The notes under the pieces were generated by a model that was not told the origin of the DNA, did no database searches, and worked only from the letters and a program-made list of their open reading frames with translations. Shown piece by piece: positions 10,846 to 46,125 of a DNA stretch of 61,688 nt (within the stretch, counting starts at the first letter, position 1; each line of letters begins with the position of its first letter). The stretch is from a virus (taxonomy: Duplodnaviria > Caudoviricetes): positions 1 through 61,688 of IMG/VR virus record IMGVR_UViG_3300034104_001758. The stretch is one strand, 5' to 3'. A program made the position numbers and the translations under genes.

Positions 10846-11546
10846 TGTCCTTTAAAAGCATCGTTGAGATGTTTAAGTATGATTCTTCAGAACAACCTTT
10901 CGTGGAGGAAGCAATGCGCTTAAAAAAAGCCGATGAAATAATGTCCGAGATTGAAGCACGGACACAAGCGCTACAAGAACGCCTTGCAAAGCACGGCACA
11001 CACGACCAAGAAGACCATGGTGGCAAGAATAAGCGCCCACGCCCAATGCCAACAACACCAGCGCCAAAGCCTGACCGCCCAAAGCCTGATGTAACACTGC
11101 CAACAAATCCAGCAAAGCCTGACCTTCCAAAGCCTTCTCCGAAACCAGAGCGTCCGAAACCAGAACGCCCAAAGCCCGACAAAACATTGCCAAGAAACCC
11201 AAACAGCCCAAGTCCAGAAGAACAGGCACGAGAGCGCCTTGAACAAGAGATTGAAGAAAAAAGGAAAAAAGACGAAGCGGCTAGACGAAAACTTGAAGAA
11301 CAAATGGGTCAAGTAAAAAAAGAACAAGGAATTAAACTTGGCTCAATGGTTACTTGGGGGTCAAGCGGTGGAACAGCAAAAGGTAAAGTTGTACGCATTA
11401 CCAAGGGTTCACTAGATGTTCCAGATTCCAGTTTCACAATTAAGGGTGAGGAAGATAACCCTGCCGTTTTAATTCGTATCTACAAAGACGGTAAGCCAAC
11501 AGACAAAATGGTTGGTCACAAAATGGATACTTTAAGAAAAATGTAA
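10845..11546 (+). CDS. protein with degenerate His tag, Pro/Lys-rich linker and C-terminal Tudor-like (DUF2945/Hva1-like) domain
   Basis: LAKHGTHDQEDHG; PKPERPKP repeats; VTWGSSGGTAKGKV...VGHK. Confidence 0.65.
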   Translation: MSFKSIVEMFKYDSSEQPFVEEAMRLKKADEIMSEIEARTQALQERLAKHGTHDQEDHGGKNKRPRPMPTTPAPKPDRPKPDVTLPTNPAKPDLPKPSPKPERPKPERPKPDKTLPRNPNSPSPEEQARERLEQEIEEKRKKDEAARRKLEEQMGQVKKEQGIKLGSMVTWGSSGGTAKGKVVRITKGSLDVPDSSFTIKGEEDNPAVLIRIYKDGKPTDKMVGHKMDTLRKM

Positions 11547-31029: not shown

Positions 31030-32019
31030 GTGGGACACATAGTTCGCAAAGCCCGACCCCGTGTTTCTTCGGCGCCGATGTTTACTGGGGCTGAACAGCA
31101 AATTTACGAAATTATTAAGACTTCGCTTTATCGCATGGGTCGCACTGTTGACGCTGATGCAATGGCTCGCGCAATTATTAACTTGCAACCAGATGTCTTA
31201 ACAAAAGTTTTAACCAGTTTAACTATTGGTGAATTGCAAGCAGTTTTACGTCAAGGAATTCTTGCGGTCATAAACAACGCTGGCAAATTAGCAGTTGACG
31301 AAATTCAACCAGTAATTTCTGCTACTCCGTCTTGGGGAAATGCTTTCACAGTTACAGGTAAGCCAAATACCAAACTTCGCTTTAACGTAAACAATCCCCT
31401 TGCAGATGATTTTGCAGACAAACAGGCTGGACGCTTAGTCACAGCAATTGACGAATCAATGCGCTCGGCTATCCGAACCGTAATTAGTGAATCATTCAAG
31501 AATCAGATTCCAGTTGACCTTACGGCTTCAAGGCTTCGGCAATTTGTTGGTTTGCACCCGCGTTGGGCATTGGCTGTAGACCGCTATTTCACGCGCCAGT
31601 ACGAAAGTCTTAGGAATAATGGCGTTACCCACGCAAAAGCGCTTGAAAGGGCTGAGGTGGTCACTGAGACCTATCGTAGGCGCTTGATACGGGCACGCTC
31701 GTCAATGATTGCTCGAACCGAGATTCAGATTGCTCAAAACTGGGGTCGTCAGTTGGCTTGGCAACAGGCTTCAGACGGTGGTTGGGTTGACCCAGACGCT
31801 CAAAAAGTTTGGAAAACCGCTTCCGCAACTATGGGCGGAGTTCCCCCGTGTGACCGTTGTGCCCCTATGGAGGGCGAGAGCGTGCGTTGGAACCAATCTT
31901 TCTCTAATGGTCTACTAATGCCACCTGCTCATCCACATTGTCGCTGTACGGCGTTCCTAATGCCACCTGACAGAGGTTTAAATGATGCTGAGTACATTCG
32001 GACGGGCATTGTTCGATGA
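31030..32019 (+). CDS. MuF-family head morphogenesis (minor head) protein
   Basis: IARTE...K.W......C..C.......PPAHPHCRC. Confidence 0.85.
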   Translation: MGHIVRKARPRVSSAPMFTGAEQQIYEIIKTSLYRMGRTVDADAMARAIINLQPDVLTKVLTSLTIGELQAVLRQGILAVINNAGKLAVDEIQPVISATPSWGNAFTVTGKPNTKLRFNVNNPLADDFADKQAGRLVTAIDESMRSAIRTVISESFKNQIPVDLTASRLRQFVGLHPRWALAVDRYFTRQYESLRNNGVTHAKALERAEVVTETYRRRLIRARSSMIARTEIQIAQNWGRQLAWQQASDGGWVDPDAQKVWKTASATMGGVPPCDRCAPMEGESVRWNQSFSNGLLMPPAHPHCRCTAFLMPPDRGLNDAEYIRTGIVR

Positions 32020-34040
32020 AATCCGTATTTGTATTTCCACCACTTCGTAAACATCAAGCGGGTCAACATGACCAAGAAACTCACGGCTCTTGGGCAACTG
32101 GGAATTTTACTTCAGCAGGTAAAGATGGTTCTTATGATGTTTATGACCACCCAAGTGGCTCAAAGATTTATTTTCAAACTAATCCAGCCATCTTAGATAC
32201 AACTACAGAAGACATAAGAATTAGGCGCGAAGAAGCAATTGGTTATGTTGATGATTTGCTTACTAAATACCCCTTGTCTGACGTAACATTTGTATTTGGT
32301 AATGGAGTTGATGAAAAATACCGCGCAAGTGGAGTGACGCTACCCTACTTTGGAGAACAAGGAAAAGAATCTTGGGGCTTTCCTCTAGATTCAGAAAAAC
32401 CAAACTCTCCAGAAATTATTGACAGTTGGATTAGCACTAACGTACCTAACATTTCGCGTGAAAAAATTAAAGGTGCTTTAGTTGTTTTTCAACCTGAAAT
32501 GTTTGGTAGGAAAAAAACAGGAACACCAAAAACTTTTGGAGAAGTTGCTGAAGAACATTTTATGGCTTTTTCAAATTCTGATTCTCATGTTGGCTGGAAT
32601 GAAAATGGTCTTAAAACAATTATTACCCACGAGTATGGTCATCTTTTAGACCAAAGAACTTATGAAAAATCAGTTAGCGATTTTGGTTCTTTTTCACTTG
32701 AATCCACATCTGATTATGGGCGTAAAAACAGTCGAGAATTATTTGCTGAAACTTTTACCGCTTGGGAATTAGAACGAGATAATCCCAAGTATCAAGCAGG
32801 GTTTGAGATTTTTAATTTTGATAATTTAAGTTCTCTAGTTAAATCTATTTCAGGTTTTCATATTCAAGAATCTTTAGACCCTAATTTTTCTTATGTTTTG
32901 ATTGAATTTGGTGGGATGCAAAAGCACCAAGCAGGAAACCATGACCAAGAGTCACATGGAAGTTGGGCTGTTGGTAGCGATGGCATGGATACTGACTACC
33001 GAATGTCTCACCGTCCACCTGACCCAGAGGACGGCGCTCCAGCGCATGACCTAACTGGTGGCGGTGCTATTTACCCAGAAAATGTTTACGACAAAGATGG
33101 CGCACGCATTTACGCTGGCGGAGAGCCTGAAATGGCTAGACGAGTTCATTCGATTATTACTTCAATGCGCGGAAACCCAAATGCCAAGGTGCAGATTTAT
33201 CGAGCAGTTCCCAAGGGCACAAGACAAGTTAACGTGGGTGACTGGGTAACTATTGACCGCGAGTACGCTGAAGTGCACGGTCAAAGCAACTTAAACAATG
33301 ACTATGACATTCTCAGCAACACAGTTAACGCTGACGAAATCTACACTGACGGTAATTCTTTGTATGAGTGGTCTTACCACCCACGAGTTCAAAAACATCA
33401 AGCGGGTCAACACGACCAGACCACACACGGGTCATGGGCAACTGCTAACGGATACAAACTTGCATCAAAAGATGACCTTCCGTCTCTAGATTCAGCAAAT
33501 TACGATTCAACGGTGCGAAACGCCAGAGATAATTACGTTGGTTTTGGCTACACATGGATGAACGCCTACCTTCGTGATGGATACATTGAAGACACAGTAA
33601 AAATAATTATGAGCGATGAGATTTCAAAAGATGAAGCAATCGGTCAAATAGAGTCTTTAAAAAGCGCCTTGTACGAAACACAAACAACACAAGATTTAAC
33701 CGTAACTAGATGGACACGAACTGGCGAAAGCATTATTGGAGAAAAATTTTCCGAAACGTCAGATTTTGAAAGCCTTATTGGAAAGACTTATCACGCTAAG
33801 GGCTTTACATCTACTTCCGCTAAACCCCATGAGAGCGTAAACGATTCTTACAAGGCACAATCAAAGGTTTTAGCAAACATTCATATGCCAGCAGGTACTT
33901 ATGGCGCTACCGTTGGCAATGACCGAGAAAGCGAATTTATTCTTGCCCCAGATACTTTTTTTGTAGTTATGGGAGTAAACGATATAGGCGAAGGTAGAAT
34001 TTCATTAGACCTTTTAGTGACGGGACAGGGCAATGGATAG
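32016..34040 (+). CDS. three-tag polyprotein: zincin, ART-like domain, VIP2-type ADP-ribosyltransferase
   Basis: HEYGH..SDYG..N..E.FAE; YRAV..GDWVT..EW; MNAYLR..VTR..FTSTS..ESEFIL. Confidence 0.75.
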   Translation: MKSVFVFPPLRKHQAGQHDQETHGSWATGNFTSAGKDGSYDVYDHPSGSKIYFQTNPAILDTTTEDIRIRREEAIGYVDDLLTKYPLSDVTFVFGNGVDEKYRASGVTLPYFGEQGKESWGFPLDSEKPNSPEIIDSWISTNVPNISREKIKGALVVFQPEMFGRKKTGTPKTFGEVAEEHFMAFSNSDSHVGWNENGLKTIITHEYGHLLDQRTYEKSVSDFGSFSLESTSDYGRKNSRELFAETFTAWELERDNPKYQAGFEIFNFDNLSSLVKSISGFHIQESLDPNFSYVLIEFGGMQKHQAGNHDQESHGSWAVGSDGMDTDYRMSHRPPDPEDGAPAHDLTGGGAIYPENVYDKDGARIYAGGEPEMARRVHSIITSMRGNPNAKVQIYRAVPKGTRQVNVGDWVTIDREYAEVHGQSNLNNDYDILSNTVNADEIYTDGNSLYEWSYHPRVQKHQAGQHDQTTHGSWATANGYKLASKDDLPSLDSANYDSTVRNARDNYVGFGYTWMNAYLRDGYIEDTVKIIMSDEISKDEAIGQIESLKSALYETQTTQDLTVTRWTRTGESIIGEKFSETSDFESLIGKTYHAKGFTSTSAKPHESVNDSYKAQSKVLANIHMPAGTYGATVGNDRESEFILAPDTFFVVMGVNDIGEGRISLDLLVTGQGNG

Positions 34041-34917
34041 ATTTACCGATTCATTTCTGTCTGAAGTAAGTCCAGACAAGGCTTTACAACATCGCATACG
34101 CGCCGAAGTAATTCTTGGTCGCTCGCTTTTGACAAAGCACCTAGCGGGTCAACACGACCAACGCACTCACGGAAGTTGGGCTGGCGGTGGTGCTGGAGTT
34201 GACATTACCGCTGACGTGGACAAACTTTTTTACAATCCAGACGGAAGCGTAAATAAAGAAACTCAAGATGTTATTAATCAAATGACCGAAAAAGAATTAG
34301 CAAACGGTCATCGCTATGGCGATAATGCTTTAAAAATTATTGCTGAACGTCAAGGATTTACAGGAAAACCTAAAACAGTTTCTACGGTTGCAGAACTAAA
34401 AAAATTGCAAGAAACAGAAGGCGGAATGATTGTTTATAGAGGTATTTCAGAGTGGAAAAGACTGGAAGTAATACCAGAACCTTATACACCGACAGTTATT
34501 ACTTACACGGCAGAACAGGCTGTAGAGCAATTCAAAAGAGGTGAATACTACGCTGGTTTTGGAGCGTTTGGAACTGGCACTTATACAACAGTAAAAGGAG
34601 ACGAAGCGTCTGCTTACGCTAATGACAAAGACGAAGATAATGACACTTATGGCAACGGAAAAGTTATGGCTATTCACATTCCAAAAAATGCCAAAATTCC
34701 AACACAAGAACAAGTAACTAGAGCCATGAAAATGGTTAATTATGATGATGGACCTAATGTAACAACCTACAAACAAAATGTTGCTCGTATTTTAGCGGCG
34801 CAGGGTTTTCAAGTTTACAATGCTGGTTTGTTACAGGACGACAAGAAAGATTATTTTGTTGTTTTAGACAGGTCTATGCTTACGGTTGCAGACCAAGATT
34901 GGATGATTGGATTATGA
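34033..34917 (+). CDS. tag plus ART-like domain
   Basis: VYRG...G.GAFG.G.YT......A..YA. Confidence 0.55.
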   Translation: MDRFTDSFLSEVSPDKALQHRIRAEVILGRSLLTKHLAGQHDQRTHGSWAGGGAGVDITADVDKLFYNPDGSVNKETQDVINQMTEKELANGHRYGDNALKIIAERQGFTGKPKTVSTVAELKKLQETEGGMIVYRGISEWKRLEVIPEPYTPTVITYTAEQAVEQFKRGEYYAGFGAFGTGTYTTVKGDEASAYANDKDEDNDTYGNGKVMAIHIPKNAKIPTQEQVTRAMKMVNYDDGPNVTTYKQNVARILAAQGFQVYNAGLLQDDKKDYFVVLDRSMLTVADQDWMIGL

Positions 34918-35705
34918 TGACTCCAACCGAATCACGCCGTTACGGTCTTATGGTCAGAGACTTTACTCCCGATGAAGCCAAGGCTTACAACGACCACCTT
35001 CTTGCAGGTAAAAGGGCAGAAGACTTTTTTGCCAAGATGGAAAAGCACCTTGCTGGTCAACACGACCAGAGTTCGCACGGGTCATGGGCTATTGATACTT
35101 TTGATGATTTAGGTGTTTGGGTTAAAAAATCAGAAGAACAATACGGAATAAATAGAAGAACAATTCAAGCAGAAATTGAGTTGCAACAAGTTGCCCAAGG
35201 ATTTAATTCAAGTTCTAATCCTGAGTATGCAAGTTCTGTTTCTATCTATCAAGAAAAATACGGAACTGTAATTAATGAAGCGCTAAGAGACCCATTAATT
35301 TCTACGCAGGGAGTTGAAAAACAAATTGCAGACTTAGACAAAGTATTAGATAGCGCCCCACCTTTAAAAGAACAAATTCTTGCGTATCGAGGAATAAATG
35401 GTGAAGGTCTTGAGTTTTTTGAAAACCTAAAAGTTGGCGATGTATTTCAAGATAAAGGATATGTGTCTACAACTTTAAACCCTAAAACTGCTGGGACTTT
35501 TGCTAATTCTGATTTATCTTCTTATGCTCAAGGAATGGTATTGCAATTCCATTTACCTAAAGGAACCAAAGGATTGTTTCCTACTCCGTTTTTAGGAATA
35601 GGGACGCTTTCATTCTCGGAATTAGAATTTTTATTACCGAGAGACACCAAATTTAAGGTAACGCAAATTCGCGGTAAAGTCATGGACTTGGAGATAACCC
35701 AATGA
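34914..35705 (+). CDS. tag plus VIP2-type (R-S-E) ADP-ribosyltransferase
   Basis: INEALR, AYRG, DKGYVSTT, ELEFLLPRDTKFKV. Confidence 0.8.
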   Translation: MMTPTESRRYGLMVRDFTPDEAKAYNDHLLAGKRAEDFFAKMEKHLAGQHDQSSHGSWAIDTFDDLGVWVKKSEEQYGINRRTIQAEIELQQVAQGFNSSSNPEYASSVSIYQEKYGTVINEALRDPLISTQGVEKQIADLDKVLDSAPPLKEQILAYRGINGEGLEFFENLKVGDVFQDKGYVSTTLNPKTAGTFANSDLSSYAQGMVLQFHLPKGTKGLFPTPFLGIGTLSFSELEFLLPRDTKFKVTQIRGKVMDLEITQ

Positions 35706-37228
35706 CCCCTGAAGTTCAAAAATTTGGCTATGACTCTGCTCAGGGTCTAAGTCTTGTTTTAGAAAAACCAAAATCTGTTTATGTAGTTCCGCCACTAGCC
35801 AAGGCTGTTGACGATGACTACAACCCTCTTGCCAAATACACAAAAACTGCTCACGTTGCTTTAGGTCGCTCACTTGGAATCAAGGCTGGTGAGTTCATAA
35901 CCGAAAAACATCAGGCTGGTAAGCACGACCAAGAAACTCACGGCAATTGGGCTGGTGACAGATTCAGTCCAGATTCAGTTAAGTCTGCCCGTGATGGAGC
36001 AAAAGAGTACGCCTTTAAGTTTGGAATTAAGCAAGATGACAGCATTGAGTATGACGAAGTGGTTGCAAACCGCGCTCGTGCATCCAAGATTGCTGACGCT
36101 TATGACGACCTACCGAAGTACGACAAAGACGCTGTAGATGAGTACGAAGCCCTAGCCACCGAAGTCGAACAACAGTATGACTACATGACCAAAACCCTTG
36201 GCATCAAGGTTGAGTTCATTTCGGAAGACCCATACAAGACATCTAAAGAAATGTTTGCTGAAGTTTCTACTGGCAAACTACGGGTTCTTAAAACGGAATC
36301 TACTGGAGCACACCCATTATTTAGCAACCAGCAAAACGATAAGTTCCGTGCAGTTCACGATTACTTTGGTCACGCGGCTACTGGTCGAGGGTTTGGGCAA
36401 GACGGCGAAGAAGCGGCGTGGGTTCATCACTCACAAATGTTCGGCAAAAAGGCTCGTGGCGCTCTAACTACTGAAACCCGTGGGCAGAATTCTTGGTACA
36501 ACACCCGCAAGAATGGTTTTGCTGACCAAAAGGTTGCGTTACTTCCTGAGCAGTATTGGGAAGTTCCAGCGGTGTTTGCAAAGCATCAAGCAGGTCAACA
36601 TGACCAATCTACGCACGGCAGTTGGGCTACTGGAATTGCTGAAAAGATTTCTTTGAAAACTGCTAGTCTTAAAGACCAAGGTATAACGCAAGAGTTCATA
36701 AAAGACCCAAAAAGAAAAGCAGAATTATTTGTAAATTTGGAAAATGTCGCTCTTTCTGCAATTGAATCAGATAAAAAATTAAACCCTGAATCAGATTTAG
36801 ATTTAAGTGAAATTTTGTATACTCAAGAATTTTTAATGACTTCTAGAGCAATGGATTGGGAGAATGATAATCCAAAACTTGCTTTTAAATCTGTTTTATT
36901 AACCAATAAAGGAAATGTTGCTGGAGCGATGGCTGTATCACTTGAAAGCAATTCTAACGGTGAACCCATTGTTGAAATTCATTACTTAGGTACAACTGGA
37001 ATAGTAGACGGTGCTGGAAGTATGCTTTATGGGCAAGCAATTAATTATGCCTACAAAAATAAAATGGGCTTGCAGTTGTATCCATTAGACAAAGCAGTTC
37101 CTTTTTGGATAAGCATGGGTTTTGAGCGTGACACTTCTGATTCTAATTATTTGCAAATACCCGCCAATAAAATTGAATTACTATGGAAAGAATTAACAAT
37201 AGTAGAAAGTGCGATGCCTAATGTCTAA
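35702..37228 (+). CDS. two-tag polyprotein: HDxxGH/TETRGQ domain plus GNAT-like acetyltransferase
   Basis: FRAVHDYFGH..GEEAAW..TETRGQNSW; IHYLG....GAGSML.......AVPFW..MGF. Confidence 0.65.
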   Translation: MTPEVQKFGYDSAQGLSLVLEKPKSVYVVPPLAKAVDDDYNPLAKYTKTAHVALGRSLGIKAGEFITEKHQAGKHDQETHGNWAGDRFSPDSVKSARDGAKEYAFKFGIKQDDSIEYDEVVANRARASKIADAYDDLPKYDKDAVDEYEALATEVEQQYDYMTKTLGIKVEFISEDPYKTSKEMFAEVSTGKLRVLKTESTGAHPLFSNQQNDKFRAVHDYFGHAATGRGFGQDGEEAAWVHHSQMFGKKARGALTTETRGQNSWYNTRKNGFADQKVALLPEQYWEVPAVFAKHQAGQHDQSTHGSWATGIAEKISLKTASLKDQGITQEFIKDPKRKAELFVNLENVALSAIESDKKLNPESDLDLSEILYTQEFLMTSRAMDWENDNPKLAFKSVLLTNKGNVAGAMAVSLESNSNGEPIVEIHYLGTTGIVDGAGSMLYGQAINYAYKNKMGLQLYPLDKAVPFWISMGFERDTSDSNYLQIPANKIELLWKELTIVESAMPNV

Positions 37229-38288
37229 AGGAATAGCAAGTTTTACTGACGAACCGTTTTTGCTTAACATGATTAACAAAAAGCAGTTGGCTAAACACTA
37301 CGCAGGACAGCACGACCAGTCCACGCACGGCAGTTGGGCGCACGGTATGGGTGGCGATACCTTTTCAGACGACCCTAGGTACCAAGAAGCATTAAAAGAA
37401 TATGGAAAGTTAAGCGAAAACGATAAAGTTTTGTCTACTTCAAATGATGTTTTTTGGGACAGTCCTATAGGAAAACTTATTATTGAATACGCAGATAAAA
37501 AGTTTCCAAATAATAAAACAATTAGCAGTGCAAAAAATAATGACAAACCAGTAAAGAAAAATTTAGAAATAAGAGAAGGTTTAAAAACTCGTTTTATAGA
37601 TGAAGGTCTTGCACAACAAGATTATGAGGAATCAGGAATCTATAAAATGTATTTTGAAACTATTTATCCTGACATCATAAATGTTGTTACAAGCGGAAAA
37701 CTTGCAATTGCTATGGACGTAGGCTCTTTTCGAAATATGATAGAAAGTGGAAAAAGCGAATTTAAAAATCAATTTCAGACTAAATCCTCTAATGGTCTTC
37801 TTGACCCATCCATGAGAAAAAAGGGAGAATTGGCTAATCAGTACATCCCCGTAGAAGTAAAACCAAGTGACAGACCTATTTATGGGTATGTATCTCCAGA
37901 TGACTCCTTAGATAACGTAACTTCTCTTGGAACATTCCAATACGGAGAAGTAAAATTTGTATTAAAAGATTCCGTAAGAGATAGAGCAACTATGACTATT
38001 GGTGATTCTCTTGGTACTAGGGCTTTTCCTATGAAAATAAATAAAACTCCAAGTGTAAAAGATGTAATGAACGCGACAGCCAGAATGATAAGACAAGCCT
38101 ACGGCAGGGGCAACAGAGATTGGAACGGGCAAGATAGTTTTGCTGAAACAGAATACTTTGAAGCACAAATTTTTGGTGGCGTTTCTGCAAAAGACATTGA
38201 AATGATTTATGTCCCAAATAACTGGGATTTACCTTCTAATTTTGCTTCTGTTTTTCCCAATATTGAAGTTGTCAGATACGATTCATAG
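37221..38288 (+). CDS. tag plus DUF3626-like (possible ART-fold) domain
   Basis: KNQFQT, RPIYG, YG.V.F.LK..VR.R.T.T.GDS, YFEAQIFGGV...DIE. Confidence 0.65.
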   Translation: MSKGIASFTDEPFLLNMINKKQLAKHYAGQHDQSTHGSWAHGMGGDTFSDDPRYQEALKEYGKLSENDKVLSTSNDVFWDSPIGKLIIEYADKKFPNNKTISSAKNNDKPVKKNLEIREGLKTRFIDEGLAQQDYEESGIYKMYFETIYPDIINVVTSGKLAIAMDVGSFRNMIESGKSEFKNQFQTKSSNGLLDPSMRKKGELANQYIPVEVKPSDRPIYGYVSPDDSLDNVTSLGTFQYGEVKFVLKDSVRDRATMTIGDSLGTRAFPMKINKTPSVKDVMNATARMIRQAYGRGNRDWNGQDSFAETEYFEAQIFGGVSAKDIEMIYVPNNWDLPSNFASVFPNIEVVRYDS

Positions 38289-38302
38289 TAGAAGGGAATA
38301 AA

Positions 38303-38479
38303 ATGATAAAAGGACAAGTAATCGCAGTAAGGGCTGACGGCGCTCAGTTCGTTTTTGATTCTATTGATGAACAGGAAACTATTTCAGGTTTTTTGATTTT
38401 AAAAAACGGCGCCCAAACTGAAATCGGTCTTATGGATATGTTTACCAAGGTCGGAGACTGGGAGCGAGTTGACCAGTAG
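38303..38479 (+). CDS. small protein (58 aa), candidate immunity protein
   Basis: Hand-translated MIKGQVIAVRADGAQFVF...KVGDWERVDQ; GAAGGGA RBS. Confidence 0.65.
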   Translation: MIKGQVIAVRADGAQFVFDSIDEQETISGFLILKNGAQTEIGLMDMFTKVGDWERVDQ

Positions 38480-38509
38480 TTAGCAATCCTCATGGGGTAA
38501 TCTATCCTC

Positions 38510-40048
38510 ATGTCACGCGCTAACCGTATTGCTCGCCTTGTCGCCATCCAGCAGGGCACTGAGTTCATTTTGCTCAAGCACCAACAAGGTAAGCACGACC
38601 AAGCCACGCACGGTTCATGGGACACAGACCGAAGCAACAACAAATCTGATTTTAAATACCCAGTTCAAGACGCAATTGATAAAGTTATTAAAGGCGAAGT
38701 TGGCAAAGTAGTTCCTGCCGATGCTGAGTTTTTGCTAGACAAAATGGCTGACCGCGAAGACAACCCAGACTTAACCAATCTTGAAATTGTTGGTACCCAG
38801 TTATTTACTCGCGACAATCTTGGAATTATGCGCGACCAGATGCCACAAGTTCCTAGCGGAGCCAAGGATGAGTTCCTTGATGAAATGACTAAGCGCGGTA
38901 TTGGGGTTAAGAGAGAAGATGTATCTCCTCAAAAACTGCACCCGATTCAGGCTGAAATTTCCGCTTCCAAAACTGGAAAGATTCTTCGTGACCTAAATCA
39001 GAACGGTCACAAAAAAGGTGATGGCGCCAGAATTGTTGTTTCTTCAGATAACTATGTAATTGACGGACACCACCGCTGGGCGGCTTCTGCCTTTATGTCT
39101 TTAAACGATGGCGATGAAAAGATTCCTGTATTGCGCGTTGACATGACACACATGGAATTAATTGATGTTGTTCGGGCTTGGAATAAAGCGATGGACATTA
39201 AACCAATTGGCATGGGGGAAAGCAACACCTTTAAGAAGGCTTGGGTTGAGTTCGAATTAGCGGTTATCAAGGGAATCCTTACAACCGAAATGCAAAAGCA
39301 CCTAACAGGACAACATGACCAAGAAACCCATGGCAGTTGGGCACAGGGACGTGAATACGTTGCTGGTCAATGGGAACCAGTTGAAACCGATAAATTAGTT
39401 CAGCAAGATGTTGATTGGTATAAATCAGAAAACCCCAACGCAACGCCTAGTCAAATCTCAGCACTTAAATCAAGAAGTAAAAAGTATTACAAAGATAGAA
39501 CAGTTGTGAGCAATGGAAGCACTGTAGTAACTTTTGAAAACAGAATTGACAAAAATAAAACTGGTGTTGATGAAAATGACAGAAAAACAATTCTTGAACA
39601 CATTGATTACTTACAAGAAAATTATCCTTTAGAAAACATTTCTGTTATAGCGGATAGCCAAGGCGGAAGTTCGGTTTGCTCAATGACTGAAAATGGAAAC
39701 GCTATTCGAATATCTCAAGTATGGGCACAAAAATCTAAAAAATTTGCGTACATGGGTTCTAAAGACAAACTCTATCCCCTTGATGAAGGAGAATTTGGTT
39801 TAGAATTTACTTTGTCACATGAATGGGGACACGCCTTCAATAATCCCTACAAACAGTTAAGTCAAAAATACGGAAAATTTATTGAAAAACACAAAAATTT
39901 ACTAGACACAGTTAGCACTTACGGTAGAAAATCTGAAGGAGAAGGTTTTGCCGAAACTTTTGCTCAAAATTCTTTAGAAAATAAATATGGTATTGAAAAA
40001 ATGGAAATAACTAAATTATTTGAAGTGGAGGTACTTGGAAATGTCTGA
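38510..40048 (+). CDS. two-tag polyprotein: ParB/Srx-like domain plus zincin
   Basis: R.QMPQ..L.P.Q.EI..YVIDGHHRWAA; HEWGH..STYG....E.FAE. Confidence 0.7.
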   Translation: MSRANRIARLVAIQQGTEFILLKHQQGKHDQATHGSWDTDRSNNKSDFKYPVQDAIDKVIKGEVGKVVPADAEFLLDKMADREDNPDLTNLEIVGTQLFTRDNLGIMRDQMPQVPSGAKDEFLDEMTKRGIGVKREDVSPQKLHPIQAEISASKTGKILRDLNQNGHKKGDGARIVVSSDNYVIDGHHRWAASAFMSLNDGDEKIPVLRVDMTHMELIDVVRAWNKAMDIKPIGMGESNTFKKAWVEFELAVIKGILTTEMQKHLTGQHDQETHGSWAQGREYVAGQWEPVETDKLVQQDVDWYKSENPNATPSQISALKSRSKKYYKDRTVVSNGSTVVTFENRIDKNKTGVDENDRKTILEHIDYLQENYPLENISVIADSQGGSSVCSMTENGNAIRISQVWAQKSKKFAYMGSKDKLYPLDEGEFGLEFTLSHEWGHAFNNPYKQLSQKYGKFIEKHKNLLDTVSTYGRKSEGEGFAETFAQNSLENKYGIEKMEITKLFEVEVLGNV

Positions 40049-41507
40049 AATAATTGATTTAGAAAATTTATCAGATGACGAATTGTACTTTTTTGCTACA
40101 AATAAAGTTAAAAAAGTAATGCCTTTATTTATTTCTAGTTTGACTTCTGTTCAAAAGCACTTAACGGGTCAGCATGACCAGTCCAGCCACGGCGCTTGGT
40201 CTACAAAATTAAACCCAGATGTGGCTTCTGACATTGTTAGATTTACTCAGGAATGGGGCGGATTATCAATCAACATGGTTGATGGTTCGATGCCTATATC
40301 TGGTTACATGGTGGCAAAACCGCCAGAATTCGGCAGAATTGTGGACGAAGTTGACTTTGTTAACCCAGTTAAGGGTCCAAAAATCCTTTCTGATTACATG
40401 AAAACCCATAAAAATGACCTAGGTAATGGAAGAAACTATCTTGGCACATGGCTAAATGATAGTAAGGTGTATCTTGATGTTTCTGAAAACATTCAGGAAT
40501 TGTTTGAAGCAATAAGAAGAGGTCGGGAACGTAACCAGAAAGCAATCTGGGACGTTGCTAACCTAAGTGAAATAGACACAGGAGGGACTGGTCTTGTCAA
40601 AGAAAGAAATCAAGATGGTGGAGTTGAAGAACATCTCGGAGATGACAGACGCGGAGATAGACGAGTACGCACTGAAAATCTGGGGAAGTCTTCAGGAGAA
40701 GAAAGATTAACAGTATTTGTTAAACCTCCAGTTGTAAAACATTTGGCTGGTCAACATGACCAGAGTTCCCATGGCAGTTGGGCTGGAACAACAAGCCTTG
40801 GTGCTGGTTCTGGTTTAAGCGCTCAAGAAATAAGAAACTTAAAAATAGGTGCAGGAACACAAGAAACTCAACAACAAGAAGTTTACAAAGCCGAAAATCT
40901 TGCAAGAGAAGAAATTTCACCAATTGATAGAAATTTAGAAGAACCAAGTTTTTCTTTTCCCAGTCCGTTTCGTTCTCAACCATTTGTTTACACCAGTGCT
41001 GAAGAAAAAGCATTTAAAAAGGCTTGGAAAAAATGGGAAACAGAAAGAAAAAAGTATATTGAATCTGAGTTGGGAAACAAACATTTAGATGGGACTATTG
41101 GTGGAGTAAGAAATTATGTAAACGAAGTTATTGATTCTGATTGGTTTAGAGAAGAATACGGCGTACCAAGCACATTCAGCATAGATAATGGTAAAAAGTT
41201 TGCAGAACACCAACCAGAAATAAAAACTCTTACATCTAAAACATACGGTGGATTGTATAGATTTAGAGATTATTACATACACGGGAAAAGAAGTTCAATA
41301 GAAATTAGAAATGATACTCTTAAATATGAACCCACCATTCTTCACGAAATTGCTCATTATGCTACTGCTATTAGCGCAACTAATAAGCACTCAGGTCATG
41401 GTAAAGAATTTGCTTTTAATAATCTAAAAATTGCAAAACAATTTATGCCAAAATACGCTATTGCTCTTGAGAGATACTATAAAGAAATGGGAATTTCATA
41501 TGAATGA
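40041..41507 (+). CDS. two-tag polyprotein: unknown domain plus SprT-like zincin
   Basis: GY.V...GTW.....YLDVS....A...G....Q.AIWD; ILHEIAH....HSGHGKEF. Confidence 0.65.
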   Translation: MSEIIDLENLSDDELYFFATNKVKKVMPLFISSLTSVQKHLTGQHDQSSHGAWSTKLNPDVASDIVRFTQEWGGLSINMVDGSMPISGYMVAKPPEFGRIVDEVDFVNPVKGPKILSDYMKTHKNDLGNGRNYLGTWLNDSKVYLDVSENIQELFEAIRRGRERNQKAIWDVANLSEIDTGGTGLVKERNQDGGVEEHLGDDRRGDRRVRTENLGKSSGEERLTVFVKPPVVKHLAGQHDQSSHGSWAGTTSLGAGSGLSAQEIRNLKIGAGTQETQQQEVYKAENLAREEISPIDRNLEEPSFSFPSPFRSQPFVYTSAEEKAFKKAWKKWETERKKYIESELGNKHLDGTIGGVRNYVNEVIDSDWFREEYGVPSTFSIDNGKKFAEHQPEIKTLTSKTYGGLYRFRDYYIHGKRSSIEIRNDTLKYEPTILHEIAHYATAISATNKHSGHGKEFAFNNLKIAKQFMPKYAIALERYYKEMGISYE

Positions 41508-41625
41508 CAAAGAACCAGAAGACTTTTATTTTGAAATAACTGAACCATTACCGCCAGATTATGTTCCGTTTCCAGAACTTGCTGGGCGTTTAATCGAGAA
41601 ACACGAACAAGAAACAGGGTCATAG
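41500..41625 (+). CDS. small acidic protein ending in a decayed tag
   Basis: MNDKEPEDFYFE...LIEKHEQETGS-stop. Confidence 0.55.
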   Translation: MNDKEPEDFYFEITEPLPPDYVPFPELAGRLIEKHEQETGS

Positions 41626-41676
41626 TACCTAGCGTGCACTAAAGTGGCATAAGGTTTGTCACCACTAGGAGTTCTC

Positions 41677-43041
41677 ATGTCTGTAGGTTTCTCGCATCTT
41701 AACGATGCTGAGTTGGAAACACTGCATAAATCACTGCACACTGATGTGGCAAACCCAGCAGTTCTTGAAGCCCATCACTCTGTAACTACCGAAATCCTTG
41801 CACGCGGTCTTGAGCACGGTCACGAAGATGACGAGTGGAATCGGGCAGTAGTTGAGTTGGAAATAGAAGACCAAATCCCAGTTTCTAAGGCTATTGCCGA
41901 AATGCCAACCGACATTGCCGAGCAGGTAATTGAATCTTTGGGCAATCCTGAGTTCGTTAAAAAGACTACATTGCTTACCGTTGATGGTTACACCTTAAAG
42001 TTTGACGCTTTTGAAAAGTCCGAAGAAGTAGAAATGCGTCTTAACGAAACCCAGAAAATGCTTTACGAAACCCTTGAAGCCGTTGTTGAGCGAGTTGGTG
42101 CTTTTGACCAAGGTGCAGGTGCTAACGGCGCTCACTACATGGAAAAAAATCCTTTTGTAAAAGAGGGAATGATTTGCGCCAACTGCGTCTTTTACGAAGG
42201 CGGTCAGGGCTGTGAGATTGTTACTGGGTTAATTGACCCAATGGCTTTATGTAAGTTCTGGATTATTCCTGAAGATTTACTTGATTCTTCAGTTAGCAAA
42301 CACCGAGCAGGACAACACGACCAAAAATCCCATGGGTCATGGGCTGGAAACAAAATACCTAATTTAGCACCAAACAAAATTGACGAAAGTAATCAGTATG
42401 GGGACGAAGCAAATTCTTTAGCAAGGGAATTGCGCGAAAGAATGATTTTAGCAGAACCACAATTAACTGCCGACATGGTTGAAATCGCAGATGCTAATTT
42501 TGGAACAATGCAAGGATTGGAAAATCGTGTAAAAAGCGAAGAATCTCTTGCCCGCAAAATTAAAAATGATTCTCTAGAATACGGTGGAGACATGAGACAG
42601 GCTACTCAAAAAGTTAGCGATGGCTTACGCTACAGCGTTACTTTTGATGAAGAAAATTACGCCGAAAGTGTTGTTTCTACTATTGCTACCTTGCAGGATA
42701 AAGGCTATCAAGTTTCTCGAACAAAAAACTTTTGGCAAAAAGGTGATGCCTACCAAGGAATTAACGCAAAAATCATTCACCCAAGCGGTTTTGAAGTAGA
42801 GTTACAATTTCATACTCCAGATTCTTGGGATGTTAAACAAAACAAAAGCGAAGAAATTTATCAAATGTATCGAGTTGAAACAGATAACAAAAAACGCTTT
42901 AAGCACTGGAAGTCAATGGCTAAAATGTTTGCTCAAGTTGCCGTTCCTATTGGAGTTGCGTCTATTGGAGACCCAGCAATTCAAGCCTTTACTGCTGGTG
43001 GAAAACAATTTATTTTTAAGGCTAGAGCGAGGAAAATGTAA
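41677..43041 (+). CDS. His-rich domain, HiPIP-like Cys domain, tag, and RelA/SpoT-fold Apk2/Tas1-like (p)ppApp synthetase
   Basis: EP.LT.DM..GLE.R.K..ESL.RKI..D.LRY..KN.W..Y.GIN..ELQFHT..S...K..Y..YR. Confidence 0.8.
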   Translation: MSVGFSHLNDAELETLHKSLHTDVANPAVLEAHHSVTTEILARGLEHGHEDDEWNRAVVELEIEDQIPVSKAIAEMPTDIAEQVIESLGNPEFVKKTTLLTVDGYTLKFDAFEKSEEVEMRLNETQKMLYETLEAVVERVGAFDQGAGANGAHYMEKNPFVKEGMICANCVFYEGGQGCEIVTGLIDPMALCKFWIIPEDLLDSSVSKHRAGQHDQKSHGSWAGNKIPNLAPNKIDESNQYGDEANSLARELRERMILAEPQLTADMVEIADANFGTMQGLENRVKSEESLARKIKNDSLEYGGDMRQATQKVSDGLRYSVTFDEENYAESVVSTIATLQDKGYQVSRTKNFWQKGDAYQGINAKIIHPSGFEVELQFHTPDSWDVKQNKSEEIYQMYRVETDNKKRFKHWKSMAKMFAQVAVPIGVASIGDPAIQAFTAGGKQFIFKARARKM

Positions 43042-43778
43042 TGCGCTATTTTTACCGTGTTGATTCTAGCGACATTGTTACCTCTGCCTATCGGTTTATG
43101 GTTGACGAAGAGTCAGAAACCATAACTGATGAAAAGTGGACACCAAATGGTTGGATTGATTCTGGAGATAAAGTAGTTGAATTTTTAATTACTGGTCTTG
43201 GCAACCTAGAAGAAGTAACCGAAGAGGACATAAAAAGGTACAGCCCTGAAATTTTAGAACTTCCAGAAGTTTCTTATGTGTCTAAATCTGCCGAAGAGCG
43301 CCGTTACACACTAGGTCCAATGTACGTTCCAGACCGAATTGACGCTCATAACGAATGGACAGATTCACTTGAGTTGCAAAAATCTGTTTGGGATTATGTC
43401 CGTAGCGGAGACCGCCGAATTCGCCTACAGCACGACAAAGAAGTTGTTGCTGGAGAATGGGTAGAAGTTATGGCGTGGCCGTATGAAGTGGCAGTTCCAA
43501 TGCAAAAAGCAGACGGAACTTCAGCACAAATTACATTCCCACAAGATACGGTTTTTCTTGGAGTTATCTGGGAGCCATGGGCTTGGGAAATGGTAAAGGC
43601 TGGCAAACTTCGTGGTTACTCAGTTGGTGGACGCGCTCAAAGACTAGAAGTTGATTTGCCAGTTAGCAAAGAAGCAATGGCAGTTGACGGTCCAACCGTA
43701 GAATCAGTTCACGAAGATACTTTAATGGCACCTAAGCGCCGAAAGAAAAAGAAAGACGAGTCGGAAAAATCCGAATAG
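43041..43778 (+). CDS. XkdF-like prohead serine protease with N-terminal immunity-like domain
   Basis: RYTLGPMYVPD..DAH, LQH, W..VK.GKLRGYSVGG from about residue 83. Confidence 0.8.
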   Translation: MRYFYRVDSSDIVTSAYRFMVDEESETITDEKWTPNGWIDSGDKVVEFLITGLGNLEEVTEEDIKRYSPEILELPEVSYVSKSAEERRYTLGPMYVPDRIDAHNEWTDSLELQKSVWDYVRSGDRRIRLQHDKEVVAGEWVEVMAWPYEVAVPMQKADGTSAQITFPQDTVFLGVIWEPWAWEMVKAGKLRGYSVGGRAQRLEVDLPVSKEAMAVDGPTVESVHEDTLMAPKRRKKKKDESEKSE

Positions 43779-43917
43779 GCGACACGCCGAATCCATTGCG
43801 ATTAGCACAATAGTGGTGTAATCCCATTGTGTTATTTTGAATCAATCAAGACTAGCGGAATGTTGCCCTGTTCAATAACAGGAACGGCACCCGCTCTGTT
43901 TACGCATAGGAGTTAGT

Positions 43918-44730
43918 GTGGCGTTTTCTCGCACTCGCAAAATGGTCAATCTCAACATTGAGGAAACCAGCGGAGTAGATTACCCAGCCCATTTACATGA
44001 TGGTTGGTTAGTTATGAAAGCGGCAAACCCTTCAGACGTGCAGACAGTTCTTGAATCATCCGTTTCCAAGGAGGACTCCATGTCGGAGAGCATTGAAAGT
44101 CGGCTAGATGAAGCGTTAGAACTTCTGACAAAGGCTGAAGAACGTATTGCTGAACTGGAAGATGGCACCGAAGAAGTTGCAGACGAAACTGAAGCCAACA
44201 AAAAGAAAAAGAAAATGGCTAAAGAAGAAGATGCAATGGATTCCTCAGAAGAGGAAGAGGACGTAATGAAGTCCATGCCAGAACCAGTACAAAAAGCATT
44301 TGAAACCTTGCGTAAGCAAGCAGAAGAAGCACAGGCAAAGGCTGATGAAGCCGAATCTGTACTTCAAACAGAGCGCGAAGCACACGCAGATGCCGAAGCG
44401 ATTGAAAAGGCTCGTGGTTGGTCACATCTATCACTAGACGCACAAGAAGTAGGCCCAGCCCTTCGCCGTCTAGCACAGATTGACGAAACACTAGCAAAGT
44501 CAGTAACAGAAGTTCTTGAGAGTGTAAACGCTCAGGCTGAGTCTGCTGACATTTTTGCCGAGATTGGTCGCACGACTGGTACTTCTGGCAACGCATTTTC
44601 CCAGTTGGAATCAATGGCTAAGTCTGCTGTTTCCGAAGGTAAAGCGTCAACTGTTGAGCAAGCACTTGCTGACCTTGCAGTTGCCGAACCATCACTGTAC
44701 TCACAGTACCTAAACGAGAAGGGTGCCTAA
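43918..44730 (+). CDS. capsid scaffolding protein
   Basis: S.VD.PA....W..MK N-terminus, acidic coiled coil, C-terminal P.LY.QY; upstream of the capsid genes. Confidence 0.75.
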   Translation: MAFSRTRKMVNLNIEETSGVDYPAHLHDGWLVMKAANPSDVQTVLESSVSKEDSMSESIESRLDEALELLTKAEERIAELEDGTEEVADETEANKKKKKMAKEEDAMDSSEEEEDVMKSMPEPVQKAFETLRKQAEEAQAKADEAESVLQTEREAHADAEAIEKARGWSHLSLDAQEVGPALRRLAQIDETLAKSVTEVLESVNAQAESADIFAEIGRTTGTSGNAFSQLESMAKSAVSEGKASTVEQALADLAVAEPSLYSQYLNEKGA

Positions 44731-44733
44731 CTC

Positions 44734-45126
44734 ATGGCATACGAATTCAGTAACTATAGCGTTAAGGCAACACTCGTTGCGGGTGCAGACCTTTCCGCAA
44801 AGCAATACAACTTCGTTAAGTTGAATTCATCTGGACAGGCAATCGCCGTAGCCGCCGCTACCGACCTTCCAATTGGAATTCTTCAGAACGCACCAACATC
44901 AGGACAAGAAGCAGAAATTCTTATCTCTGGTGGTTCTAAGTTGGTTCTTGGTGGCACCGTTGCCGCCGCCGCAATTGTTAGCCCATCGTCAACTGGCGCT
45001 GGTGTAGCAATCGTTCATGGAACTGACACAACCAAGTACGCCGTAGGTCAAGCCATCACTGGTGGGGCTTCAGGCGAAATCGTAACCGTAGTCGTGAACT
45101 GCTCATCCGCAGGTCGCGCGGCTTAA
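44734..45126 (+). CDS. capsid cement/decoration protein
   Basis: A..DL...QY.FV......GILQN.P..G..A, Gly/Ala-rich. Confidence 0.75.
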   Translation: MAYEFSNYSVKATLVAGADLSAKQYNFVKLNSSGQAIAVAAATDLPIGILQNAPTSGQEAEILISGGSKLVLGGTVAAAAIVSPSSTGAGVAIVHGTDTTKYAVGQAITGGASGEIVTVVVNCSSAGRAA

Positions 45127-45147: not shown

Positions 45148-46125
45148 ATGGCACAGCCACATTTGAATAGCGTCCACGTTGACGCAATTCTGACAAACAT
45201 CTCGGTAGCATATATGCAAAGAGCCGAAAATTACATTGCAGACAAGGTATTCCCAGTAGTACCTGTTGACAAGAAGAGCAACAAGTTCTTCAAGTACACC
45301 AAGAACGATTGGTTCCGTGACGAAGCACAGCGCCGTGCAGATGCAACTGAATCCGCTGGTTCGGGCTACAGCCTAACCACCGATTCATACAATGCTGACG
45401 TATGGGCTTTCCACAAGGATGTGGGCGACCAGACACTTGCTAACGCAGATGCTCCGTTGTCACCACTTCGCGAAGCCGCTGAGTTCGTCACCAACCGCCT
45501 ACTTCTTCGCCGTGAGATTCAGTTCGTTTCTGATTTCGTCACAACTGGCGTATGGGCAAATGACGTAACTGGTGTTGCAGGTACTCCTTCAACTGGAGAA
45601 GTTAAGCAATGGTCTGACTTTGCTAACTCTGACCCACTAGAAGACGTAGAAGCAGGTAAGGAAACCATTCTTGGAACTACAGGATACGAGCCAAACACAC
45701 TTGTTCTTGGCTATCAGGTATTCCGTAAGTTGAAGAATCACCCAGACCTAGTTGACCGCATCAAGTACACATCATCCAACGTAATCACCGAAGAAATGAT
45801 TGCTCGTATGTTTGGTGTAGACCGCGTGCTTGTCGCTAAGTCAGTAAAGGCAACAAACAAGGAAGGCGCCGCAGACGCAATGGCATTTAATGTCGGCAAG
45901 TCTGCTCTTCTTTGCCACGTTGCTCCAACTCCAGGCCTAATGACTCCATCCGCAGGTTACATCTTCTCTTGGAATGGTGTATCTGGCGGTCTTGGACAGA
46001 CCATTGGTACTTCACAGTTCCGTATGGAAACCATTAAGGCAAGTCGTGTTGAAGCCGAAGTCGCGTTTGACAACAAGGTTGTTGCCGCTGACCTAGGTTA
46101 CTTCTGGACTAGCATCGTAGCGTAA
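45148..46125 (+). CDS. major capsid protein
   Basis: HVDAILTNIS.AY......AD..FP.V.V; 325 aa; position. Confidence 0.88.
   Translation: MAQPHLNSVHVDAILTNISVAYMQRAENYIADKVFPVVPVDKKSNKFFKYTKNDWFRDEAQRRADATESAGSGYSLTTDSYNADVWAFHKDVGDQTLANADAPLSPLREAAEFVTNRLLLRREIQFVSDFVTTGVWANDVTGVAGTPSTGEVKQWSDFANSDPLEDVEAGKETILGTTGYEPNTLVLGYQVFRKLKNHPDLVDRIKYTSSNVITEEMIARMFGVDRVLVAKSVKATNKEGAADAMAFNVGKSALLCHVAPTPGLMTPSAGYIFSWNGVSGGLGQTIGTSQFRMETIKASRVEAEVAFDNKVVAADLGYFWTSIVA

Follow-up and report, generated by a model that had tools for sequence, protein, structure and literature searches.

The window analysed here is the whole of the 61,688-base IMG/VR virus record IMGVR_UViG_3300034104_001758, which comes from an uncultured phage and has a CheckV completeness estimate of 100%. 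Eight consecutive, mostly overlapping open reading frames (ORFs), E1 to E8 (32016-43041), carry 13 modules of putative capsid cargo, and at each module joint stands a conserved peptide, here called the tag, which begins with a Lys that usually has a hydrophobic residue two positions before it. We propose that these elements form a two-part junction signal on capsid cargo, consisting of a protease site and a conserved module header, and that the chain is cut after the Lys by the head protease of the phage. This reading, derived from sequence comparison and structure models, is given a probability of about 0.55. In the following, P1 is the Lys, P3 is the residue at -2, and phi-x-K means L, I, V, M or F at -2 of a Lys.

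Junction sites in the putative cargo genes

A regular expression run over the head-module ORFs found 13 copies of K-H-x-x-G-x-HDQ-x-x-HG-x-W across E1-E8. Measured from P3 to the end of the tag, and all on the + strand, the junctions are LRK-HQAGQHDQETHGSWA (32043..32096, Lys codon at 32049), followed by the tag behind MQK (32916..32969, Lys codon at 32922), VQK (33387..33440, Lys at 33393), LTK (34129..34182, Lys at 34135), MEK (35037..35090, Lys at 35043), TEK (35900..35953, Lys at 35906), FAK (36575..36628, Lys at 36581), LAK (37287..37340, Lys at 37293), LLK (38570..38623, Lys at 38576), MQK (39290..39343, Lys at 39296), VQK (40149..40202, Lys at 40155), VVK (40731..40784, Lys at 40737) and VSK (42292..42345, Lys at 42298). 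A preliminary description of this DNA had listed the same 13 triplets and counted 12 as hydrophobic at -2. Every triplet is exact, and L/I/V/M/F is found at -2 in 12/13, TEK being the sole junction with a non-hydrophobic P3. The genome background was taken from the Lys residues outside the head block, where 239 of 808 (0.30) have one of these residues at -2, and against it the binomial P is 4e-6.

The preliminary description also stated that V[FY]VxPP[LV]xK is common to three ORFs, and a six-frame search of the whole window returned exactly three matches, at residues 4-12 of E1, 26-34 of E4 and 232-240 of E7. The copies in E1 and E7 precede tags. The E4 copy, VYVVPPLAK (35777..35803, +), is tagless and has Ala as its next residue. 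A further tagless site, VSK-A (41881..41889, +), is found at residue 78 inside the N-terminal domain of E8 (PVSK-A), where P-V-x-K-A is conserved in 9/9 aligned homologues.

Nine columns are invariant among the 13 local tag copies. The DNA of the copies has a mean identity of 0.69 and the differences are mainly synonymous, which indicates that selection on the peptide maintains the tags. An origin of the 13 tags by recent duplication or gene conversion was considered and was ruled out by the same two observations, the 69% mean DNA identity and the mainly synonymous differences.

The tag is followed by a Gly-rich stretch. This layout resembles that of a cargo-loading peptide, i.e. a short conserved peptide with a flexible linker on unrelated cargo. 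In an AlphaFold2 (AF2) model of E3, with a mean predicted local distance difference test (pLDDT) score of 82.5, a helical leader and a confidently modelled module are separated by the tag core at residues 53-63, which is unstructured (pLDDT < 50).

The tag family in other viruses

A profile was built from the 13 tags of the window and searched against 1.84 billion cluster representatives. It matched 664 representatives at E <= 1e-3 and 175 at E <= 1e-10, with up to 19 matched tag stretches in one protein of 7059 amino acids. Among the best 150 of the 664, HDQ..HG is present in 147 and occurs 394 times in total. Two forms of the tag occur in these 150, a long form K-H-x-x-G-x-HDQ (248 copies) and a short form K-H-G-x-HDQ (123 copies), giving 371 tags. 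P1 is Lys in 97% of the long and 92% of the short tags, P3 is V/L/I/M/F in approximately 75% and 85%, P4 is Pro in 15% and 24%, respectively, and P2 is variable.

The Lys is part of the profile, and the count was therefore redone with a DNA pattern specifying only G-x-HDQ-x-x-HG-x-W. Here we used, among the matches listed, the first 240 stretches, which gave 292 distinct contexts, 286 of them with a recognisable start. P1 was Lys in 283/286, P3 was L/I/V/M/F in 91%, and P4 was Pro in 67/286.

A Pfam scan of 46 tag-bearing representatives gave a match in 23, to ADP-ribosyltransferase (ART), ART-PolyVal, GNAT, NUDIX, DUF3626 and metallopeptidase families. SprT-like or DUF6782 metallopeptidase matches were found in 4/46, and one tag-bearing protein has eight ART stretches behind nine tags. 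A scan of bacterial genomes for the tag yielded only four loci. For cultured phages, a tblastn search of E6, E3 and a 36-residue junction against 50,697 GenBank phage records gave no alignment that covers a tag; the search with the 36-residue junction lacks the sensitivity to demonstrate absence. The tag has no counterpart family in NCBIfam, and literal-string and keyword searching of the literature found no description of the peptide.

Leaders and module boundaries

The ART module of E3 was aligned with 17 orthologues from related viral contigs (n = 18). The leaders of these 18 sequences are 17-62 residues long and unrelated, and homology sets in at P3, which is hydrophobic in 18/18; the K and H of the junction are invariant. 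As a pattern of sequence, phi-x-K ends every leader. No conserved targeting information was found in the part predicted to be removed, as the leaders of the 18 orthologues are unrelated and the conserved peptide sits past the predicted cut. Of 135 complete tag-bearing representatives, 0 have a leader shorter than 7 residues and none begins with the tag. Short leaders of the type MKSVFVFPPLRK or M-x-V-I-x-F-x-P-G-L-x-P-V-L-K recur.

Module boundaries in relatives coincide with the tags. In one relative, residues 1-280 of E6 are joined to residues 41-495 of E7, and the SprT module of E7 also exists as a stand-alone ORF of 250 amino acids with a leader of 11 residues. Different cargo modules follow the tag of the conserved N-terminal domain of E8 in relatives. 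Furthermore, several related viral contigs (L003, L006, L019, L036 and others) have the same modules in differing fusion orders or as single ORFs, with the break points in the tags. Because the break points between relatives lie in the tags, these may act as fixed joints for module exchange.

The head protease

The XkdF-type head protease ORF (43041..43778, +) matches Pfam Peptidase_S78_2 with E = 5.2e-10 and 39.8 bits, where the cut-off is 24. The match covers residues 77-203 and model positions 2-126 of 126. According to an AF2 model, the ORF consists of a folded N-terminal domain (1-67), a linker, a core (approximately 83-205) and a basic C-terminal tail. H103, H131 and S194 are invariant in 17 protease sequences and are the predicted catalytic residues.

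The protease domain had been described as bracketed by VSK-S and VSK-E, and this holds: residues 80-83 are VSK-S and residues 208-211 are VSK-E, around the Peptidase_S78_2 match. Both triplets are predicted self-processing sites. On the N-terminal side, V80-S81-K82 (43278..43286, +) is invariant in 17/17 protease ORFs, despite the fact that their N-terminal domains are non-homologous. On the C-terminal side, VSK at 208-210 (43662..43670, +) has a conserved Lys column and a hydrophobic P3. The mean pLDDT of the model is 63.7 and falls below 50 in segments 72-88 and 205-245, which hold the two sites.

Homologues have corresponding arrangements. In the cultured Arthrobacter phage Ottawa, an unrelated N-terminal part meets the protease domain via IITK-SAE in gene 87, which is annotated as 'RNA ligase'. 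Tagless phi-x-K sites are common to the window and Ottawa in this protease fusion and also in the scaffold. In two further records (P0103 and L064) the protease domain ends with RLEIEK, directly followed by a tag, and this end aligns with RLEVDLPVSK-E of the window. Three protease homologues stop 2-4 residues before the C-side V-x-K site. Co-folding of protease residues 77-215 with an alignment of the 36-residue junction gave a score of 0.03 against a mark of 0.32, a control-free result that counts neither way.

The scaffold protein

Downstream of the protease lies the scaffold protein (43918..44730, +; phrog_13547, E = 1.2e-65) with ten phi-x-K sites. All eight sites listed in the preliminary description are present, together with MAK-E at residue 102 and LRK-Q at residue 133. 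The enrichment is weaker than that description implied. Ten of 19 Lys fit, compared with 4.1 +/- 1.7 in residue shuffles (P ~0.002). Hydrophobic residues at offsets -4, -3, -2 and -1 were counted as 1/19, 3/19, 10/19 and 2/19, respectively, which means that the effect is confined to -2.

In an alignment of 24 scaffolds, L/I/V/M/F stands at -2 in 6 of the 9 conserved Lys columns, and V/F/Y/M/L/I in a seventh. The conserved Lys columns of other head proteins were used as controls, and L/I/V/M/F was found at -2 in 4/12 for the portal, 0/1 for MuF, 1/4 for the decoration protein and 4/14 for the capsid protein (9/31 when pooled). The triplet VSK occurs seven times in 18,868 residues, and five of these are in the adjacent E8, protease and scaffold genes, where 0.32 would be expected.

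Within the scaffold, conservation is highest at the N-terminus (43918-44020), E-E-T-S-G-V-D-x-P-A-H...G-W-L-V-M-K. A similar motif, ELSLTPNPANPNAYIVK, ends the HK97-type S78 protease ORF of a distant tagged phage (L320, ORF 907-1968, -), and in a metagenome-assembled genome (L061) the scaffold starts with the like motif EVSVVDQAANGKRFLVLK. This suggests a docking element that would be shared by protease and scaffold and would end in a phi-x-K site.

Proteases that accompany the tags

A homologue of the window protease is present at 19 of 20 tag loci that have at least 3 kb past the last tag. Additionally, ten further records were examined, and Peptidase_S78_2 was found in 6/10. The four records without it comprise one complete to 53%, one fragment of 22%, one with Peptidase_S78, and one whose 'tag' was rejected as a false match with a stop codon inside. 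The record with Peptidase_S78 is L320, which is 96% complete, has Lys-type tags and carries a tag in the same ORF as its HK97-type protease. This ORF ends ...ELSLTPNPANPNAYIVK-A and, 14 residues on, ...FGTK, and then the tag follows. L320 thus joins Lys-type tags with Peptidase_S78, and a claim for XkdF only is therefore slightly too narrow. The small partial contig L061 has MuF, one tagged ORF without HExxH in its printed sequence, an XkdF protease and the scaffold.

Rare tags have Glu in place of the Lys with the header unchanged. Their P4-P1 residues are LILE, RVRE, NLLE, PLKE, LLLE, QIKE, VIVE and VAQE, with an aliphatic P3 or P4; an example is NLLE-HLPGQHDQ. They are found in a Streptosporangium prophage (L062) and in two other viral records, one of which was read in two overlapping contigs (L074/L075 are among the contigs). 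Peptidase_S78_2 was found in 0 of 5 records searched for this type, 3 of the 5 being fragments. The fifth of these records, G004 (L070), matched the DNA pattern only and showed no tag. Beside the tagged genes of the Streptosporangium prophage there is a weak Mu-like_Pro match (E = 7.7e-4, under the cut-off), and the Glu-type contigs end before any identifiable protease. A second Streptosporangium prophage with a Mu-like_Pro match has no tags. The switch between Glu and Lys agrees with recognition of P1 by a lineage-specific protease, though the sample is too small to settle the matter.

Proposed mechanism

In the mechanism that we propose, the 13 enzyme modules in the eight ORFs of the E1-E8 block would enter the procapsid and be delivered together with the DNA. 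The first part of the junction would be a protease site, (Pro)-hydrophobic-x-Lys, and the second part a conserved header of 15 residues, H-x-x-G-x-HDQ-x-x-HG-x-W-A, followed by the Gly-rich linker. Inside the procapsid the XkdF-type serine protease would cut after the Lys, gripping P3 and P1 of an extended chain. A substrate strand bound in extended form in a protease groove would be expected to show this pattern, P3 and P1 being conserved and P2 free.

The cut would strip the unrelated N-terminal leaders and part the fused modules, each of which would then begin at the His of the header. ORFs with a single module keep leader, site and header, which suggests that an exposed N-terminal His is of importance on its own account. 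The protease would release itself at V-S-K80-82 and V-S-K208-210, and it would chop the scaffold at conserved phi-x-K-(S/A) sites, letting the pieces leave. The header would stay on the module, and it would most likely serve to target the module to the procapsid or retain it there, or to guide it during ejection. As trypsin itself cleaves behind Lys, tryptic proteomics would not reveal the junction cut.

Weighing the evidence

The preliminary description held that the XkdF-like protease cuts after the tag Lys. This is partly supported, by the P3/P1 logo, the break in homology at P3, the V-x-K sites around the protease domain, the tags found right after the protease domain in relatives, and the Glu-for-Lys variants in records where no XkdF-type protease was found. 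The restriction to XkdF is a little too tight, in view of L320.

A number of observations weigh against our reading. Sites of the phi-x-K type are common, making up 30% of the Lys in the genome, and the cargo ORFs have 63 more of them outside the tags, so the site alone cannot specify cutting. Lys-His is near-invariant (283/286 among the matches listed above), and Lys and P3 could therefore simply belong to a binding motif. The scaffold is modestly enriched when compared with the genome background (P = 0.03, binomial; P = 0.04, Fisher), and its contrast with the controls on conserved Lys rests on 9 versus 31 columns. A tape-measure-like ORF (52858-56460, +, 1200 amino acids), so called by its size and position and with no family match, is more enriched than the scaffold (36/71, P = 1.5e-4). 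Over the whole protease ORF there is no enrichment, 5 of 16 Lys compared with 4.1 expected.

Further points on the same side concern the protease. A Foldseek search of its model against the PDB gave nothing at E <= 0.001, and the human cytomegalovirus (HCMV) protease was listed no higher than ranks 16 and 26, with non-significant E = 0.27 and 0.43. The record complete to 53% (L039, 96.9 kb) has Lys-type tags and no Peptidase_S78_2 match. The evidence from the Glu type is small, with five records of which three are fragments, and with no protease beyond one sub-threshold Mu-like_Pro match. Finally, another group of enzymes, the zincin metallopeptidases treated below, has already been proposed as processors of such proteins. 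What lies behind the tagged polyproteins of L039 is a group of sugar-nucleotide and glycosyltransferase genes instead of a head protease.

Alternatively, phi-x-K-H and the rest of the element could together form an uncleaved docking peptide, akin in concept to an encapsulin cargo-loading peptide, that ties each module to the scaffold, the shell interior, portal/MuF or DNA, with the chains staying intact, and we consider this unlikely. The header is conserved beyond the needs of a protease site, as seen from the nine invariant columns and the near-invariant K-H, and it is followed by a Gly-rich linker and, in the model, forms an unstructured segment that links a helical leader to a confident module. 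The single-module ORFs E2, E3 and E5 carry the element though nothing in them needs separating. However, docking leaves four observations unexplained: the invariant tagless V-x-K around the protease domain in predicted linkers, the homology that starts exactly at P3, the lack of leaders under 7 residues and of proteins starting at the tag among the 135 representatives, and the switch of P1 to Glu with an unchanged header. Docking and cleavage are not mutually exclusive, and the two-part signal that we favour keeps docking as the role of the header.

A bolder extension of the two-part signal would make the header a universal address label for each module of tailed-phage cargo, active only once the head protease has freed the N-terminal His, with the tags as joints for swapping modules. 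The freed H-x4-H-D-x3-H peptide would bind metal or DNA/portal, thereby holding the module in the capsid and piloting it through the tail. Methionine aminopeptidase is not known to yield an N-terminal His, and this would explain why every tagged gene has a disposable leader of at least 7 residues. We regard this extension as distinctly improbable.

Very little probability is given to cutting of the junctions by the cargo's own zincin modules (HEYGH in E1, HEWGH in E6 and the SprT-like HEIAH in E7), with the head serine protease uninvolved. There are three such HExxH modules within the block and metallopeptidase matches in the 4 of 46 scanned representatives, and zincin metallopeptidase domains were proposed as processing enzymes for polyvalent proteins in the main text of Iyer, Burroughs, Anand, de Souza and Aravind (2017; PMC5512222). 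Against this stand the tags placed directly after S78_2 or S78 domains in P0103, L064 and L320, and the tagged ORF of L061, which in that partial contig has no HExxH in its printed sequence and is accompanied by an XkdF protease and scaffold. Moreover, phi-x-K is found on both sides of the serine protease domain and again at conserved Lys of the scaffold, which points to the head-maturing enzyme.

That only the tag is real, and that the phi-x-K likeness of tag, scaffold and protease sites is coincidence or helical composition, is likewise given very little probability: the frequency of phi-x-K in the genome, the modest P of the scaffold, the higher count in the tape-measure-like ORF and the unenriched protease agree with it, but it does not account for V80-S81-K82 being invariant in a low-confidence linker across non-homologous N-terminal domains, for 5/7 VSK triplets lying in three adjacent genes, for 6-7 of 9 conserved scaffold Lys fitting compared with the pooled controls, for the tag that homologues place at the C-side site of the protease, or for the scaffold effect being limited to -2, whereas the tape-measure-like ORF has hydrophobic residues at +2 in 32/71 Lys as well as at -2 in 36/71, and with this symmetry resembles a periodic phi-x-K-x-phi pattern.

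Comparison with known systems

Head cargo with leaders that are removed by a protease, as in T4 and phiKZ-like phages, is an already known kind of system, and so are polyvalent proteins. In T4, the capsid-targeting leaders of internal proteins are cut by gp21. The window differs from the T4/phiKZ type in that P1 is Lys and not Glu, and the protease is of the S78_2 and not the gp21 type. It also differs in that the leaders are mutually unrelated, the conserved peptide is situated past the predicted cut and would remain attached to the cargo, and the signal is repeated inside polyproteins.

The prohead protease gp4 of HK97 (Peptidase_S78), which removes the delta domain of the capsid protein, belongs to a related serine protease family, and HK97 gp5 is cut after a Lys. 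HK97 is unlike the window in having no cargo modules, and in the window the capsid protein belongs to the Phage_cap_E type and the scaffold is a separate protein. Encapsulin cargo-loading peptides, which are likewise short, conserved and attached through a flexible linker, mark unrelated enzymes for an HK97-fold shell; they have no sequence likeness to the tag and are not coupled to a protease site. Herpesvirus assemblin is freed by its own action from a larger precursor, and the sites used have an aliphatic P3 together with a P1 that is small or defined. Its P1 residue differs from that of the window, and the fold match of the window protease is non-significant.

For phage SPN3US, the part of PMC10052503 that deals with processing describes the assemblin-fold head protease gp245, for which cleavage behind A-x-E (P3-P2-P1) was mapped by experiment to 14 sites spread over nine head proteins. 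The likeness to the window lies in head cargo, N-terminal propeptides (predicted for the window) and the P3-x-P1 motif of a head protease, and gp245 also cuts itself and core/scaffold proteins.

With their chains of unrelated conflict enzymes (ART, zincin metallopeptidase, GNAT, NUDIX, ParB-like) beside portal and MuF, the polyvalent or MuF-linked effectors of the main text of PMC5512222 are the closest in composition, and the composition of E1-E8 is that of phage-type polyvalent cargo proteins as set out there. Like the products proposed here, polyvalent proteins are predicted in that text to be packaged and processed, sometimes with an assemblin-like peptidase fused C-terminally, and ART-PolyVal matches occur among the tag-bearing representatives. 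They are unlike the window as described there, in that the modules of the window are partly split over eight ORFs, each with its own leader and signal. In the main text of PMC5512222, supplements apart, the string 'HDQ' is absent, and none of the passages listed for cleavage, processing and motifs describes a junction peptide. The available text of papers on JBD30, phi24B and AXL1 gives no cleavage sites for a system of the window type.

Four things set the present system apart: the Lys at P1 with an S78/S78_2 protease, the unrelated leaders, the conserved peptide downstream of the predicted cut and the signal at every module joint. Polyvalent cargo is thought to be a major route by which phages deliver anti-defence and takeover enzymes, and the junction signal would offer a handle on its loading and disassembly. 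It predicts the mature products of hundreds of proteins of uncultured phages and names the bond for N-terminal analysis. The header is furthermore a candidate for a portable label with which foreign proteins might be loaded into HK97-fold capsids.

Gene order and minor observations

The head-assembly block extends from 29.6 to 46.1 kb and contains, in sequence, portal, MuF, E1-E8, protease, scaffold, decoration protein and major capsid protein. The Mu-type portal protein is at 29612..31021 (+; Pfam Portal_Mu, E = 5.7e-41). It is followed by the MuF-like minor head protein at 31030..32019 (+; Pfam Phage_Mu_F, E = 1.5e-6, 29.3 bits, just under the cut-off of 29.6), the stop of which overlaps the start of E1.

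E1-E8 contain two ADP-ribosyltransferases, three HExxH zincin-like modules (one of them SprT-like), ParB-like, DUF3626-like and nucleotidyltransferase-like modules, and several modules without a family. With respect to Pfam cut-offs, ADPrib_exo_Tox (twice) and SprT-like are above, DUF3626 is just under and RelA_SpoT is weak; the ParB-like assignment is from phrog_2859. All eight ORFs are on the + strand. E1 (32016..34040) has a leader of 12 residues, a tag with the HEYGH zincin-like module, a tag with a module matching phrog_2579, and a tag with an ADP-ribosyltransferase. E2 (34033..34917) has a leader of 35 residues, a tag and a module without known family, and E3 (34899..35705) has a leader of 49 residues, a tag and an ADP-ribosyltransferase (Pfam ADPrib_exo_Tox, E = 3.6e-19). 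In E4 (35702..37228) the leader contains the tagless VYVVPPLAK-A site and is followed by a tag with a phrog_3170 module and a tag with a module of unknown type. E5 (37209..38288) has a leader of 29 residues, a tag and the DUF3626-like module (Pfam E = 3.2e-6, 26.8 bits, just under the cut-off of 27).

E6 (38510..40048) begins with a leader of 23 residues, followed by a tag with the ParB-like module (phrog_2859) and a tag with the HEWGH zincin-like module. E7 (40020..41507) has a leader of 46 residues, a tag with a module of unknown type, and VFVKPPVVK with a tag and the SprT-like zincin HEIAH (Pfam SprT-like, E = 8.3e-7). E8 (41656..43041) has the conserved N-terminal domain of 215 residues, a tag and the nucleotidyltransferase-like module. 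The N-terminal domain (residues 1-215, 41656-42300) ends with C-x2-C-x8-C-x12-C-x2-W and has a weak HIPIP match (E = 0.004, 17.8 bits, where the cut-off is 22); E8 may therefore be a head protein with an iron-sulfur domain. The C-terminal module (42346-43041) resembles the C-terminal domain of XopAD/skwp type III effectors (NCBIfam NF041399, E = 1.1e-31). This match is far under the full-length cut-off, and the RelA_SpoT match of the module is also weak (E = 0.0011).

Behind the scaffold, a head decoration-type protein is found at 44734..45126 (+; phrog_673). The phage Ottawa gene at this position, just upstream of the major capsid gene, is annotated as a head fiber protein, and the two are likened by position. 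The major capsid protein at 45148..46125 (+; Pfam Phage_cap_E) has 64% identity to that of Arthrobacter phage Ottawa.

In the record itself, the profile of the 13 tags re-finds all 13 and, in addition, a 14th degenerate short tag with E = 0.003, LAK-HGTHDQEDHGG (10962..11021, +). It lies in ORF 10830-11546 beside the large terminase and is followed there by a Pro-rich linker and a Hva1_TUDOR domain (Pfam E = 2.4e-7). This ORF may encode one more packaged protein, from a position outside the head block.

Just upstream of the portal, two ORFs (27920-29540, +) may be DNA-modification genes. ORF 27920-28921 has cytosine-C5 methyltransferase-like motifs (FPC, ENV), as judged by eye, and ORF 28908-29540 has the look of an S-adenosylmethionine (SAM) methyltransferase.

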